Part shown: positions 1 through 6,000 of the stretch, piece by piece
How the letters are laid out: each line of letters begins with the position of its first letter
Position numbering within the stretch: the stretch's first letter is position 1
Assembly: GCA_043818055.1 (NCBI GenBank)
Contig: JBDRGF010000158.1
Coordinates: forward strand, 1-41,134
Reading direction: 5' to 3'
Length of the DNA: 41,134 nt
Source of the DNA: Pseudomonadota bacterium
GTDB taxonomy: Bacteria > UBA10199 > 2-02-FULL-44-16 > JBDRGF01
Position numbers: made by a program

Positions 1-3000
1 TAAAAAGTACCTTCGCGAATTGGAGCAAGTCGTTGCGATTAAGTTCAATGGAGCATTACCCCGGCTTAAAAAAATAAATCGAAAAGGAACAGATGAAAAA
101 AGTTTTGAGAGAAATGATGTCGATAAGTTGACGATCAAAACTGTCTTTGAAAAAAAAGGATGGGACAAATACCCAAGGCCAACAAAGGAGAGACTTCTCT
201 ATAAATCGAGACACGTAATTGCCACAAAATTCGTTGGGGCGTTGCCCACGCTTTTAAAAATAGATGGAAAGCGAATTGTTGAAATTCCAATGCAGATATC
301 GACAGCGAAGTTGACCCGCTGGATCAATGGGGAATGTGTCAGATTTGGAAAGGGAGCTCCAGCTCATTCGTTTTACACACAGATCAGGGCATTATTGGAG
401 AAAGTCGGAAATATTGAAAAAGATGAGGTTGATAAACTGATAATCGATGACATCTTTAAAAATAAGGGATGGGACAAAGAACCTGAAAACGCACAGGAAA
501 AACTGTTGTTTGAATCGAGGCGTGTTGTTGCGATTAAGTTCGGTGGCGACTTGCCTCAGTTTCCAAAAATCGACGGAAAGCGAATCGTTGGAATTCCAGC
601 ACAAACTTATAGATCGATATTAACTCGCTGGATCAACAGGGGAAGGGCTAAATTACATGTGAATGAACTCATGGAACAGATAAAAACGCTATTGATCAAT
701 GTCGGAGGAATGGATCAATCATATGTTCAAAACCTCATTGAATCGGTTCTTAAGCCGGAGAAAATTGTTCATTGACTCGTAACTGTTTGCAAAAACAGCA
801 TGTAGAAAAAGAACTGCCCCCACCAAAAAACATTTTCAGCCCTATCATCCACAAATTTCCAAATCAATTTTTGATATCAGAGGATTCGATCACATGCTAC
901 ATGCTACATGCGCTTTTATCTTAATAAGTATCTTCCGACAAATCGGAGTATGGATCGTCAGTGGAATCGCTCGTATCAGAAGTTTTATCCTTTTTCTTGC
1001 CCTTCTTTGAAGACTTCTCAACCGGCTGAGAAAACTCTTTGCTACCCGAATCAATCGTCACAAACCATGAATCAAGGATCTTTTGCATAGCATTGAAATC
1101 GCCGCTCTTCACAAGTGCTGAAGGCATTTTGATTCCCAATTTTAGAGAGACTCTGGAGACCGGCTTTTTGGGATCAACATTTTCCGGTCTGTAAATATCC
1201 CTGGAGAGGAGTTTAAAAAATATCGTATTGCCAAACTTCTCCACGGCAGCGACGATCATCACAGTGCCGGGACGCAAATAGGTATATGGTTTACCCACCC
1301 TTGTCTTCATGCCATCCCCCTTAACCACCACTCCTCTATAATCATAATCAGCCCAATTGATAAAACGCTCCGCCCTCTGGGCTGGAATACCACTTCTAAC
1401 TATTTTTACAAAACCACGAAGTTTTGAAGGATCAGGATCGGTATAGGCATATTGAAGTCCATCGTTCCAAACGGCCGGCCTGTAGAAATCCTTGAACTTC
1501 TGAAGGGTCTCTTTTGAAATGCCTGCAAAGGATGAAAGAGATACGATCACCGCAAGAACTAGCGTTAATACAAAACTTGATTTCTTCATTTTACCCCCAT
1601 GTTAAAAATTATCCTAGTAAGGGCGGTTCGCGAACCGCCCCTACAAATATCAACCAAATGCCTTTATAGCATTTGCCAACTCAGCATGATTCTTTGAGAA
1701 CTCCTTCAACTCAGTCCCCTCTTTTACAGCTCTCCAGGCTTGATGTAAACTCTTCGCTCCAGCTTTTGGACCTTGAGGATGGCCAAAGACACCGCGCCCG
1801 GGTACCATTCCAAAATCGACAGAGCCCACCTTATCATAAATCATAGGCAGAGTTCCAGCCCAATCGCTTCCACCCGGAAGAGGCAGAGCAGATTCAATTC
1901 CACCCCAACTCTGAGTGCAGAGTTTCACATTTGAAATCACCTCATTCTCAGGGGTGAGCATGCGCCTGCCGAAACCGGGCATGATTATCGCGTCAAATCC
2001 TACAAGACGCTGTAGCTTTGTGAAAACCTCGCTCGCAACTCCGTAAAAGGGGATGCGGGATGCTGCAGCTATAAAATCAAAATGCGCGACGATCGGAACT
2101 GAAGAGCGTTTCTTGAGCATCTTAATCGCGGAAAAACCGGTCGTCATGCCATTCACCATCACCGCATTGATACCGTTCTCAACGGCGATATCGTGAAGTG
2201 TTACAAGATTTTCAACTTCATCTGTTATGTTCGCAACGAACATCTTTGGAACACCTGTCTTATCTTCAGCTTCACGTTTTTTTATTCCCAAAAGCTCCAT
2301 ACGTTTTGAGAAAGGTGACCAGATAGTATCGGCAAGCATTTCATCATCTTTGGCTGCATCTAAACCACCTACCCAGGCTTGATAGGCAAGCTCAGAAAAA
2401 TCCTCTGGATTCAAACCGATGTTCGGCTTAACAACTCCGAAGAAAAAAGGCCTGTCATGAACGTCGAGCATGCGCCTCAAACCATTCAAACCGAAACGAG
2501 GCCCTTTGAATTCTTCAAAAAAAGCCTTCGGAAAATCTATATCGAGAAGCTTGATAGATGAAATGCCGTGGCTGAAAAAAGCCCCCTCTCCACAGGCGAT
2601 CGTGAGGAGGTTGGGAATTTTCACACCGCAATTATGCAGAGGATGCGCTATCCGAACAAAGCAACGATGAAAGAGGTCCGCATCATTAAACTGTGATGGA
2701 AATGAGGGAACTTTAGATGTTTCCAAAACTTTGAGTTCCACAACCTTGGCAGCATGAAGAGGCCTGAAATCCTCATCGACACCCGGTCTGCACCACTGCG
2801 CTGTGGAAGATTCACTGCAAAGGTAGGCCACAGCTTGCACCGGATCGATATCCGTCTCCAGCCAATAGGTTAAGAATATATAATCGTCCACATTCAAGGA
2901 GGATTCATCTGTAAAGAAGGCTTTGATCTCTGTTGGTTTCATAAATTATAGACCTGACTCAGTCAGCACTTTTCGCCGATCACCTTGATCTTCACATGGC

Positions 3001-6000
3001 GCTTCGCGCGGGGGCCATCCAGCTCAATAAAAAAGATCGACTGCCAATCCCCAAATTCAAGCGTTCCCTCTGAAACCGGAATCGTCACTGAGCTTCCAAG
3101 AAGCATCGACATGAGATGGCTGTGAGCATTTGATCTCAAGTCCGCCGGCTGCCTGTCGTGATGATATTCGGCCTCGGGCACAACATCTTTCAACAGGTTA
3201 ACCATGTCTTTTTGAAGATGTTCGCATTTTTCATTCACAATAATTGAGGTTGTAGTGTGCTGCGTCGTGATGCTCAAAATCCCATTGTTCACACCGCTCT
3301 CCTTGCAGATCTTCCTGATCTTCTTTGTGATGTCTATTAGCTCGATTGGTTCGTTTGTCGAAAAATCAATTTCGGTTGTGAATACCTTCATCATTTGTCC
3401 CTTTCTATAATGTACTTCGCAAGATTTCGAAGGGGGTCTGCCTTTTCATCAAATGAACTTAAACTTGTTAATGCCTGTTCGACCAACATCCTGGCTTTTT
3501 TCTTTGAACCGTCTAATCCTAAGATAGCAGGGTAAGTCGATTTATCATTTGCAAGGTCGCTCCCCACATCCTTGCCTAATTTATCCTGATCACCCTCTAT
3601 ATCTAAAACATCGTCTGCGATTTGAAACGCAAGCCCGATGGATTTTCCATATTCATCGAGAGCCGCTATCTTTTCATCGTCATCGGTAAAACACTTTGCT
3701 CCGGATACTACTGACACACTGATGAGGGCGCCTGTCTTATATTTGTGTATCCTCTCAAGTGACTCTAAAGTGATAGCACCGCTGGATTCCATGTCAAGGA
3801 CCTGTCCACCTGTCATACCGCGAGATCCTGTGGCTAATGCTATGTCGGAGATGATTCCCAAACCCCTCTCACCCTTAAGGTTTTTGAGGGAATTCGAGAG
3901 GAGATAAAAGGCGTCTGCCAAAAGGGCATCGCCTGCAAGAATTGCAATGGCCTCACCAAACACCTTGTGGTTTGTTGGCTTTCCGCGCCTTAAATCATCG
4001 TCATCCATAGCCGGCAGATCATCGTGAATTAAACTGAAGGTGTGGATCATCTCCATGACTATTCCGACATCAAGCACAGCTTGGGCCTCACCGCCGACTG
4101 CTTCGGCACCGGCTATCACAAGCGTTGGACGAAGACGTTTCCCTCCTGCCTTCAAGCTGTAATTCATAGCCTCCCGAAGACGCTCAGGGATATCCTCATC
4201 GAGAACAAGGGTTTCAAACCTCTTCTCCACCAAAGCCTCATTGTTTTTTATGTAACTTTTGAGGTCCATAGGGGGGATTTCGTAGAACATCTCCAGCTAT
4301 TTGTCACGAAGATTTAGCTCAAATTATCCCTTAAAAAAGCATGTTTTTAATGGGAAAATAGTTCAAATTAAGACACAACTTTTTTGGGGCTTATACCGAT
4401 AACATGACCATGACGATTAAAAAAACACCTGCAGTCGGAATCCCGATTAAGCTGCTACAGAGACTGGGTTCCGTTCAGAATGAAAGCACCTCACCTAAGA
4501 GCACCTCGTTTTACAAGGATGTTAAGCTTAAGGAGCCCTCATCCAATCTCATAAACAGCTCTTCTCCAGCACGTTCGCTAAATTCGCGCTCCGATCGACA
4601 GCTCATCATAGTATCAGATGGCGTTAGGATGATGGTCAGAGGCAATTTTCAAAAGGCGAGATCCTCTTTTAAACAAGCAATTAAAATGGGGGGAAGAACA
4701 AATATAACGCTGCTCAGAAAGTGGATATCGGAGTCCTATTTTTATGAGGGTAAATTCGATAAAGCGCTTGAGGAGCTATTGATTACGATAAAATCATCGA
4801 TAAAAAAGAATGCAAACATCGACTCCATAATTCGCCATAACATAATCCCGTGGGCGTTAATCATTGTAAGCTTTACAAAAAGAGCTCATGCATCAAAAAA
4901 ATTGATCGCAAAATTTAAAGAACGCCCTCTTGATATTCAAAAAAGACTCAACATCACGCACGACCAACTCACAAAAGAGAAACTTACCATCGCTTCAATA
5001 TGCTTTCGCTTCGGCAAATTTGTCACCGGAAAAAAACTTCTCAAACAGATATTCAAAAACCCGCCGACATATGCAAAGGGGTTAACAGAAAAATTCGCCA
5101 AGCTCTATTCACAAAGAAGATATCATTCAGCTTCAAGATTTCTAAACAAATTGAATCGTATCTCAGCAGATGAAAAGTATGATCACAAATTTTATTCGCT
5201 CATCATGCAGGGAAAGCGAAACGAGGCAAAAGCACTTCTGAAAAGGATGAACCTCTTCGATAAAATCAGAAAGAAGCGGATGAGCTATACTAATTTACTA
5301 TATAATGTACTAGTTCAATCCTACAATTACGATAATAGTTTCCCTCGTAAAAGAATTCTTCATGGGACCCTCTACATAAAAGGCTCCACACAAAACTTTT
5401 CTCAAGTTGGAAGCGAGTTGGGATTAGAGTTGAGATATAATGTTTCCAAAAATCTATCTCTCTTCTTGAACGGAAAGGGCAACTTTTCAACGGATCAATC
5501 ATGGCGATTTGGAGTTGGATTGGGCATGGACATTAACTTTCCGATCGATATCAAGGAACATCATAGCTTTGGATTTAGAAATGTTAATTCTGGTTTCATC
5601 TCTCACATAGGGAAATTTAGCATCGAGACACAATTGATAGGTTATTATATGTTTAGCTTTGGAAAATACCTGAATCATAATATCCGCTTCGGAGCAGGAC
5701 TTGTTTTGACTGGACAAAAAGTCTTTTTGGGCGAAAAAATAACTTCCTCACCCCTTCTCAATCTCACATATCAATTTGATTTTTAAAAATACGCTCAACA
5801 AAAAAACCAGCATACCTTGATAAAAAGAAGATAAAATAAAGCACCAATCATCTATAAAATACTAGCCGAGGCAGTCGATGAAGGAATCAAACCCTGCATC
5901 ACGCGCCATATTTAAGGCGCTTTTGGGATATTTACTGAGCAACTTATATCCAATTCATCCGATAATGTTTCAGGTTATAAACACTTCAGAATATATTATG

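Follow-up and report, generated by a model that had tools for sequence, protein, structure and literature searches.

A RuBisCO-like protein and a zinc-dehydrogenase pair alternate downstream of ispA in a phylum mostly without DXS: a possible route from 5'-deoxyadenosine to 1-deoxy-D-xylulose 5-phosphate

In the phylum UBA10199 a RuBisCO-like protein (RLP) of form IV-Photo and a pair of zinc dehydrogenases (types A and B) are mutually exclusive in the same slot behind ispA, a relation newly recognised here. Based on gene content we propose, with a probability of roughly 55%, that the RLP and the dehydrogenase pair each turn 5-deoxyribulose-1-phosphate derived from 5'-deoxyadenosine into DXP (1-deoxy-D-xylulose 5-phosphate). 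Among the 50 high-quality genomes without DXS, 34 possess the RLP, 16 possess both zinc dehydrogenases and none lacks both modules. Over all 93 genomes the RLP occurs without dehydrogenase B in 57, B without the RLP in 26, both in one and neither in nine; these counts include kin and are therefore not independent, and the slot genes served to define both dehydrogenase types, with identity thresholds set after the output was seen. Exceptions are G063, with the RLP and both dehydrogenases, and G060, with the RLP, LsrF and type A fragments.

The window, meaning the whole stretch of 41,134 nucleotides analyzed, bears out the ispA-yjbQ-RLP operon of the first-pass annotation with three co-directional open reading frames (Table 1). 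The ispA product reaches 378 bits against NF045485 (FPP synthase, cut-off 275), and YjbQ is above the cut-offs of PF01894 (129.8 bits) and TIGR00149 (130.6 bits); yjbQ overlaps ispA by 4 nt and is followed by the RLP gene after a gap of 20 nt. The palindrome behind the RLP, which we take to be REP-like, has 28 exact copies in the genome compared to 0 for 10 shuffled palindromes, and may act as terminator of the unit; a promoter and terminator scan yielded nothing beyond chance level. The order xseA-xseB-ispA-yjbQ-RLP-tlyA claimed earlier is not kept in this window: xseA and xseB, which together with a patatin gene are the customary upstream neighbours of ispA across the phylum, lie about 26 kb off, and tlyA, followed by a gene for a TPR protein (Pfam), is found on contig C32. 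Of the thiamine genes listed, thiG encodes an enzyme consuming DXP, and thiH and thiC encode radical SAM enzymes that release 5'-deoxyadenosine.

Table 1. Features of the window, with positions counted from its first nucleotide.
Feature	Position	Strand	Basis and remarks
Perfect 20-bp palindrome	1621..1640	.	just 3' of the RLP stop; genomic repeat
Form IV-Photo RLP (assigned from sequence)	1650..2942	-	430 aa; PF00016; PDB 1tel/1ykw/2qyg
yjbQ (UPF0047), RLP-linked subfamily	2963..3394	-	143 aa; PF01894, TIGR00149
ispA, farnesyl diphosphate synthase, first gene of the unit	3391..4290	-	299 aa; NF045485, PF00348
thiG, thiH, thiC	12896..16065	+	PF05690, PF04055/PF06968, PF01964; context, outside the operon
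patatin-xseA-xseB	29968..33149	-	tblastn, ORF list; 25.7 kb from ispA

Judged from its sequence the RLP belongs to form IV-Photo. As previously noted, the solved relatives of that clade, C. tepidum RLP (1TEL/1YKW, E 1e-160) and R. palustris RLP2 (2QYG, E 1e-154), are far ahead of the next structure (9e-58), and the protein stays below the cut-offs of the OiaX, MtnW and form II/III models. It shares about 55-60% identity and identical active-site motifs with these relatives, the alignment to 1tel giving the same VVKPNIGL, AKDDEML, HF, MPGFG.RM, PGGSD and PGRGVFGHP; it differs from them in its partners, which are YjbQ and ispA instead of aldolase-SDR/LsrF/SDR. The residues noted are K172, N174, K198-D200-E201, H287-F288, R327 and S359. 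KxDE and the loop-2 Lys are retained, together with the substituted active-site residues of the Photo clade. N174, F288, I320 and R327 stand where a carboxylase has K177, R295, H327 and K334 in RuBisCO numbering, which sets the protein apart from bona fide RuBisCO. As far as seen the host shows no sign of phototrophy. Passages of PMC5893883 keep the DeepYkr and Photo clades apart, treat the Photo-clade function as an open question and provide a precedent in RLP1, a 1,3-isomerase. They also agree with the first-pass annotation that R. palustris RLP2 has no detectable activity on methylthioribulose-1-phosphate, earlier work having seen merely trace activity.

The phylum counts given before were reproduced, with Dxr in 90 of 93 genomes, DXS above the cut-off in 17 and the RLP in 58, from which a 59th match, a weak fragment (E 3e-4), was left out; 48 of the 76 DXS-less genomes possess the RLP. 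DXS is likewise missing in 50 of the 63 high-quality genomes, with a wide gap between scores of <=227 and >=516 bits, and G006, G012, G020 and G021 gave no match whatever to the DXS model. The DXS-less members need DXP, because IspG was present in 5/5 and PdxJ in 3/4 of those tested and HMG-CoA reductase in 0/5. In 51 of 58 genomes the RLP lies less than 1 kb downstream of ispA, and so takes the place behind xseB-ispA that other bacteria give to dxs. The order xseB-ispA-dxs-tlyA had been named as the usual one; we confirmed xseB-ispA-dxs-yajO in E. coli, and ispA-dxs-tlyA is the order in other phyla. At five Planctomycetota dxs loci ispA was not found, and these loci thus add no further reference for the order. 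In keeping with the earlier statement that dxs of the phylum lies elsewhere, none of the 13 dxs loci read contains ispA in the stretch examined.

This genome indeed carries its own dxs, a full-length match (775 bits, cut-off 466) on contig C159 beside rml/glycosyltransferase genes; match and locus rule out a mis-called transketolase. RLP presence shows no association with DXS loss (10/17 DXS-positive versus 48/76 DXS-less genomes, p 0.79), and the five Planctomycetota with yjbQ-RLP all have DXS. A link of yjbQ-RLP specifically to DXS loss is thus not borne out, and the better interpretation is a salvage route by which dxs becomes dispensable; in this dxs-bearing genome the route would be a second DXP supply or salvage.

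Part of the text of PMC10663253 states that for 172 of the 181 MEP species without DXS the natural bypass has no explanation, and Rhodothermus marinus is named among such species in a section of 10.1101/2021.05.17.444423. The switch between RLP and dehydrogenases occurs within families f11, f14, f16, f19 and f23 and within genus g61, and in RLP-less genomes a dehydrogenase module follows ispA at 17 of 26 ispA loci (neighbour counts are based on tblastn). Altogether four unrelated modules, RLP, A, B and LsrF+A, recur directly after ispA. In 11 of 13 cases an LsrF scoring above the NCBIfam cut-off is encoded immediately upstream of dehydrogenase A; neither dehydrogenase reaches any NCBIfam cut-off, and their look-alikes in the ESM Atlas (Acidobacteriota, Cyanobacteriota, Chloroflexota and others) are leads only. 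The 28 genomes without DXS or RLP had been held against a role of the RLP in DXP supply; they exist, but lose most of their weight as an objection, since 25 of them carry at least one of the two dehydrogenases and the remaining three are 67-87% complete. Two oxidoreductases replacing a single RLP suggest a net redox-neutral isomerization.

In the proposed route MtnP and MtnA would convert 5'-deoxyadenosine, the waste of radical SAM enzymes, to 5-deoxy-D-ribulose 1-phosphate; literature passages on the DHAP shunt report this activity and intermediate. The RLP would then act as 5-deoxyribulose-1-phosphate 1,3-isomerase, moving the carbonyl from C2 to C4 via successive enolizations as the R. rubrum RLP does on the methylthio analogue, and the 5-deoxy substrate would give DXP directly, with no sulfur-removal step. 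In RLP-less genomes one zinc dehydrogenase may oxidize C4 to 3-hydroxy-2,4-pentanedione 5-phosphate (P-HPD), which the second would reduce to DXP; the alternative order would pass through a deoxy-arabitol-phosphate. The oxidation of arabitol-1-phosphate to xylulose-5-phosphate by D-arabitol-phosphate dehydrogenase, described in part of PMC6685057, represents a precedent. LsrF could connect P-HPD with DHAP and acetyl-CoA, so that LsrF and dehydrogenase A would amount to a thiamine-free de novo DXP synthesis. No open-access paper was found that connects LsrF to DXP or gives the Photo RLP such an isomerization role. More tentative than the core proposal is the full picture in which the MEP pathway of the whole phylum runs on radical-SAM waste, with the RLP as isomerase, the dehydrogenase pair as its equivalent and LsrF+A as DXP synthase.

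The distribution of the supplying enzymes is consistent with this route. MtnP occurs in 88/93 genomes (63/63 of high quality) and MtnA in 85/93, despite the rarity of SAM decarboxylase (5/93); here they are encoded on contigs C141 and C60. MtnD was absent in the 5 genomes tested and the class II aldolase/MtnB family is sparse among DXS-less genomes (20/76, versus 13/17 DXS-positive ones), leaving the MtnA product without known outlet in most genomes. An Aenigmatarchaeote has mtnP-yjbQ-RLP(-mtnA), and in a Micrarchaeote yjbQ-RLP adjoins mtnA. LsrF is found in 20 of 80 metagenome RLP loci, typically as aldolase-SDR/LsrF/RLP/SDR, but these form one clade and hence one event; in three metagenome loci yjbQ-RLP lies just after photosynthetic reaction-centre genes. 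LsrF and class II aldolase co-occur with the dehydrogenases; absence from 56 of 76 DXS-less genomes rules out the aldolase as general de novo substrate supplier. A nucleoside catabolism from ribulose-1-phosphate to xylulose-5-phosphate is less likely here, as this genome (93.6% complete) has no transketolase/E1 match besides dxs. One must keep in mind that by the orders of magnitude of its flux 5'-deoxyadenosine may be too scarce for all isoprenoid demand (47 open reading frames of this genome carry a radical-SAM-like motif, a crude upper count), and that most DXS-less genomes have neither LsrF nor the aldolase to replenish the pool, which counts against the shunt. The equal retention of the RLP with and without DXS, and the lack of detectable RLP2 activity on methylthioribulose-1-phosphate, are also on this side. 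Other IV-Photo RLPs lie in PTS/RpiB or UPF0261 sugar-catabolic clusters, hence the clade may use several substrates.

Among the alternatives, the one that survives best, though unlikely, is that both modules merely dispose of the 5'-deoxyadenosine carbon, e.g. by cleaving P-HPD to DHAP and acetyl-CoA, with incidental ispA adjacency and DXP from another enzyme or uptake. It is in agreement with the retention of the RLP alongside DXS, with E. coli LsrF being a catabolic thiolase for P-HPD (in parts of PMC6410053), with IV-Photo RLPs in Parcubacteria and Micrarchaeota (in parts of 10.1101/386292) and with Chlorobi-like loci joining RLP to LsrF. With 56 of the 58 RLP genomes of the phylum lacking LsrF there is no such drain, and the recurrence of all four modules behind ispA also speaks against disposal.

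Rather improbable is an RLP that eliminates water or phosphate from Ru5P or RuBP to a 1-deoxy-2,3-diulose 5-phosphate for reduction to DXP, similar to the E. coli RibB-mutant/YajO bypasses cited in a section of PMC10663253. This would resolve the flux problem, yajO adjoins dxs in E. coli, and G081 and G087 have an aldo-keto reductase gene behind the RLP, as G089 has behind the neighbour of ispA. Two dehydrogenases alone, however, cannot deoxygenate a sugar and yet replace the RLP, most RLP loci have no linked reductase, and the archaeal linkage to mtnP/mtnA points elsewhere. Little credence is given to an MTA-isoprenoid shunt with the RLP isomerizing methylthioribulose-1-phosphate and YjbQ standing in for the cupin methylsulfurylase: MtnP and MtnA are near-universal and this shunt can contribute significantly to R. 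rubrum DXP (passages of PMC4334135), but SAM decarboxylase occurs in merely 5/93 genomes and was not found in this one, RLP2 shows no detectable activity on that substrate, and our query turned up no RLP-type YjbQ in five high-quality RLP genomes that lack DXS. Least credible is that a promiscuous transketolase or the E1 of pyruvate dehydrogenase supplies DXS activity, or that DXS was missed in incomplete genomes, the RLP being unrelated to isoprenoids, since partial transketolase/E1-like matches in most DXS-less genomes and the same explanation offered for Acidobacteria (part of PMC5462960) are opposed by the DXS score gap in high-quality genomes, the four genomes without any DXS-model match, the sole transketolase/E1 match here being dxs, and a complementarity left unexplained.

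For the proposed isomerization YjbQ appears not to be obligatory. The 56 YjbQs encoded next to an RLP group in one clade (99/96) apart from 20 paralogs; as the family occurs in 89/93 genomes with several paralogs, its presence is uninformative and only the tree separates the RLP-linked subfamily. In eight genomes the RLP immediately follows ispA with no space for yjbQ. YjbQ hence reads as a dedicated but dispensable partner, with H46, E55, H79, D85, R87 and H93 invariant. It is probably metal-binding and might act as an accessory enzyme on an intermediate or a deoxyribulose-5-phosphate side product. Of the earlier suggestion that RLP and YjbQ together supply DXP independently of DXS, the RLP part is partly supported, strengthened by the complementarity in 50 of 50 genomes, and an obligatory YjbQ is not.

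The proposed route resembles the MTA-isoprenoid shunt of R. rubrum and R. palustris (MtnP, MtnA, DeepYkr RLP, cupin methylsulfurylase) in its first two enzymes, the putative 1,3-isomerase and the predicted end product DXP. It differs in its Photo-clade instead of DeepYkr RLP, in the mostly absent polyamine-derived MTA source, in a 5-deoxy analogue that would need no methylsulfurylase, in its proposed role as main DXP source, and in the non-homologous dehydrogenase pair replacing the RLP in a third of the phylum. No cupin methylsulfurylase gene was seen beside the RLP in the loci read, though no search aimed at it was made. With the DHAP shunt (MtnP/MtnA/Ald2; MTA, 5'-deoxyadenosine) it has the first two steps and 5-deoxyribulose-1-phosphate in common, whereas the aldolase family is missing in 60/93 genomes and the carbon is proposed to enter DXP, not DHAP and acetaldehyde. 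The LsrF/LsrG catabolism of phospho-AI-2 shares the LsrF orthologue and P-HPD, the proposed hub, but here no lsr operon context was seen, and LsrF is paired with a zinc dehydrogenase in the vicinity of ispA or dxs.

For the DXS bypass the complementarity points to a substrate, to a product and to another, unrelated set of enzymes, and makes both the bypass and the function of the Photo RLP testable with a handful of genes. The full picture, if true, would put a name to what the Photo clade catalyzes, give a reason for its spread among phototrophs that make pigments and cover many MEP genomes without DXS. A DXS-free entry into isoprenoids, especially one where LsrF and a dehydrogenase start from acetyl-CoA and DHAP, would matter for terpenoid engineering.

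The absence of DXS from most genomes of the phylum is real. Recounting the 93 genomes gave the figures of the first-pass annotation: Dxr in 90, DXS over the cut-off in 17 and the form IV-Photo RuBisCO-like protein (RLP) in 58, including 48 of the 76 DXS-less genomes. DXS is absent from 50 of the 63 high-quality genomes, where the best score does not exceed 227 bits, while true copies score 516 or more; its model had zero match in four relatives of the genome studied here (G000). HMG-CoA reductase was not found in the five genomes tested, IspG was present in all five DXS-less genomes tested, and PdxJ, which consumes DXP, in three of four DXS-less ones. 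Rhodothermus marinus is counted among DXS-less MEP organisms (10.1101/2021.05.17.444423), and PMC10663253 leaves 172 of 181 DXS-less species unexplained. A promiscuous transketolase or E1 protein was proposed as DXS source in Acidobacteria (PMC5462960); tblastn against G000 (93.6% complete) returned no transketolase or pyruvate dehydrogenase E1 homologue except dxs.

The full-length dxs of G000 lies on contig C159 amid rml and glycosyltransferase genes. That dxs is placed elsewhere than ispA was confirmed, as none of 13 dxs loci examined has ispA nearby. It adjoins nucleotide-sugar or polysaccharide genes in several phylum genomes including G000 (loci L100, L101, L104, L105, L111). The dxs copies fall into two lineages, one about 44% and the other 65-70% identical to that of G085, which suggests that the gene was acquired separately.

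The ispA-yjbQ-RLP operon and its distribution are likewise real. The best PDB relatives of its RLP are those of C. tepidum (E 1e-160) and R. palustris (RLP2, 1e-154), the next following at 9e-58. It shares the active-site motifs of both and lacks the carboxylase residues; in a profile search it fell below cut-off for all named RLP models. It is the sole RuBisCO-family gene found in G000. The palindrome beyond it is REP-like.

Features in the window and in loci (L-numbers) fetched for comparison
Feature	Position	Strand	Remark
ispA	3391-4290	minus	member of tight three-gene unit
yjbQ	2963-3394	minus	4-nt overlap with ispA
RLP, 430 aa	1650-2942	minus	20 nt beyond yjbQ
20-bp perfect palindrome	1621-1640		28 exact copies in genome; shuffled palindromes 0
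Dihydropyrimidine dehydrogenase-like pair	19536-22203		in block parting xseB from ispA
Six-gene Nqr/Rnf-type cluster	22285-27434		in same block
Aldo-keto reductases	L126:8617-9774, L130:4925-6028, L093:4031-5176		directly after RLP in G081, G087; near ispA in G089; echo E. coli dxs-yajO
LsrF-A unit converging on B	L136:5262-8163		G089:C72
Divergent-RLP locus	L129:3285-10229		G063:C24
RLP-NUDIX locus	L237:5001-6875		downstream of reaction-centre genes

The phylum's gene order is patatin-xseA-xseB-ispA-slot-tlyA-TPR gene, where tlyA is the FtsJ-type gene; the E. coli order is xseB-ispA-dxs-yajO. In 51 of the 58 RLP genomes less than 1 kb separates ispA from the RLP downstream of it; three of the remaining seven are at contig breaks. 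Since in G000 the usual upstream genes patatin-xseA-xseB are 25.7 kb from ispA and tlyA is on contig C32, outside the window, the slot is a phylum-level trait that is half kept in the window.

Of 26 ispA loci retrieved from genomes without the RLP, 17 have a zinc-dehydrogenase module after ispA. Its two types, A and B, are about 32% alike and occur phylum-wide in 28 and 27 genomes (identity at least 38% and 42%, thresholds chosen at score-list gaps once the output was seen). RLP and B occur together in one genome, RLP only in 57, B only in 26 and neither in nine. The 50 DXS-less genomes of high quality divide into 34 with the RLP and 16 with both A and B, none lacking both solutions; over all 76, three (67-87% complete) have none of the genes and four incomplete ones a single type. 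The switch recurs inside five families and inside one genus; related genomes are not independent, and p-values on this distribution overstate. Exceptions are G060 (RLP, LsrF and fragments of A) and G063, where A and B accompany a divergent RLP (37%) away from ispA. Upstream of this divergent RLP lies an MTR-kinase-like gene, and a nucleotidyltransferase and several CDP-alcohol phosphatidyltransferases are near; the locus possibly serves a polyol-phosphate lipid or solute pathway. Because two oxidoreductases replace one RLP, the slot reaction suggests itself as a net isomerisation.

Of the 93 genomes, 88 encode MtnP, including all 63 of high quality, and 85 encode MtnA, yet SAM decarboxylase occurs in five and MtnD in none of five genomes tested. 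MtnP and MtnA also take 5'-deoxyadenosine to 5-deoxyribulose-1-P (PMC13474568, PMC6302742, 10.1101/2023.08.10.552779), and they would do so here. On the methylthio analogue, the R. rubrum-type RLP shifts the carbonyl group from C2 to C4 (PMC5893883); by our derivation the same shift on 5-deoxyribulose-1-P would yield DXP directly. The dehydrogenases would oxidise C4 to 3-hydroxy-2,4-pentanedione 5-P (P-HPD) and reduce this to DXP, oxidation of arabitol-1-P to xylulose-5-P being known (PMC6685057). We consider such a specific 5'-deoxyadenosine shunt the best mechanism, at slightly better than even odds. In the open-access literature we found no published assignment of this isomerisation to an IV-Photo RLP; the known MTA-isoprenoid shunt can contribute significantly to DXP in R. 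rubrum (PMC4334135).

P-HPD is also the LsrF substrate (PMC6410053). Thirteen genomes encode an orthologue of LsrF, which exceeds the NF006081 cut-off and matches PDB 3gkf at E 1e-97. Its gene sits immediately upstream of A in 11 of them, the two lie 2.6 kb apart in one, and the last has a fragment at a contig end; the LsrF-A pair immediately follows ispA in G083 and neighbours dxs in G045. In G086 B and a class II aldolase form one unit adjoining ispA. The LsrF-A unit plus B is a candidate route from acetyl-CoA and DHAP to DXP. LsrF and class II aldolase are missing from most DXS-less genomes, the class II aldolase/MtnB family (33 of 93) being enriched with DXS (13 of 17 versus 20 of 76). In five DXS-less, RLP-less genomes the LsrF-A unit converges on B (L134 to L138).

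The main weakness of the 5'-deoxyadenosine shunt is the supply of this compound against isoprenoid demand. The RLP is present independently of DXS loss (10 of 17 genomes with DXS, 48 of 76 without), and R. palustris RLP2 was inactive on methylthioribulose-1-P in the excerpted part of PMC5893883. Planctomycetota with yjbQ-RLP have DXS and Dxr in five of five cases, and IV-Photo RLPs occur in Parcubacteria and Micrarchaeota (10.1101/386292) and in sugar-PTS clusters, which argues against a dedicated DXS substitute; IV-Photo RLPs may have several substrates.

Beyond the phylum, two archaea link the pair to mtn genes: mtnP-yjbQ-RLP is followed by mtnA in an Aenigmatarchaeote, and mtnA adjoins yjbQ-RLP in a Micrarchaeote. 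The best 80 of 264 confirmed metagenome RLP loci contain yjbQ (22), LsrF (20), UPF0261 (15), RpiB (9) and ispA (7); the LsrF-RLP loci examined carry an aldolase-SDR fusion and are all of one clade. Three yjbQ-RLP metagenome loci come after reaction-centre genes, which fits the heavy radical-SAM use and high isoprenoid demand of phototrophs. In L237, L212 and L228, downstream of photosynthetic reaction-centre genes, a NUDIX domain is either part of the RLP protein or encoded after it, with lipoyl synthase adjacent in two. In L171, L173, L175, L177, L180 and L183 two to three PEP-hydrolase-like TIM barrels and a flavodoxin-like reductase precede the IV-Photo RLP, and in two a dehydrogenase E1 subunit follows.

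In the tree, one clade (99/96) unites the 56 RLP-adjacent YjbQs of the phylum, of archaea, of Planctomycetota and of phototrophs, apart from 20 paralogs, with H46, E55, H79 and H93 invariant and D85 and R87 clade-specific; the pairing is thus old and specific. The three His and Glu resemble the aldolase/epimerase metal site, and our guess from these residues would be an epimerase or aldolase. YjbQ and class II aldolase stand together beside the RLP in none of 138 loci. PMC3010111 and 10.64898/2026.06.26.734693 give YjbQ no physiological function.

The first-pass annotation had named RLP and YjbQ together as a candidate DXS-independent source of DXP. YjbQ does not keep this role: it is accessory, since in eight genomes ispA is followed at once by the RLP with no yjbQ between, and the search of five high-quality DXS-less RLP genomes yielded YjbQ paralogs only. 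The RLP does, and in the DXS-less members of the phylum it is a likely supplier of DXP, with a probability of roughly three in four.
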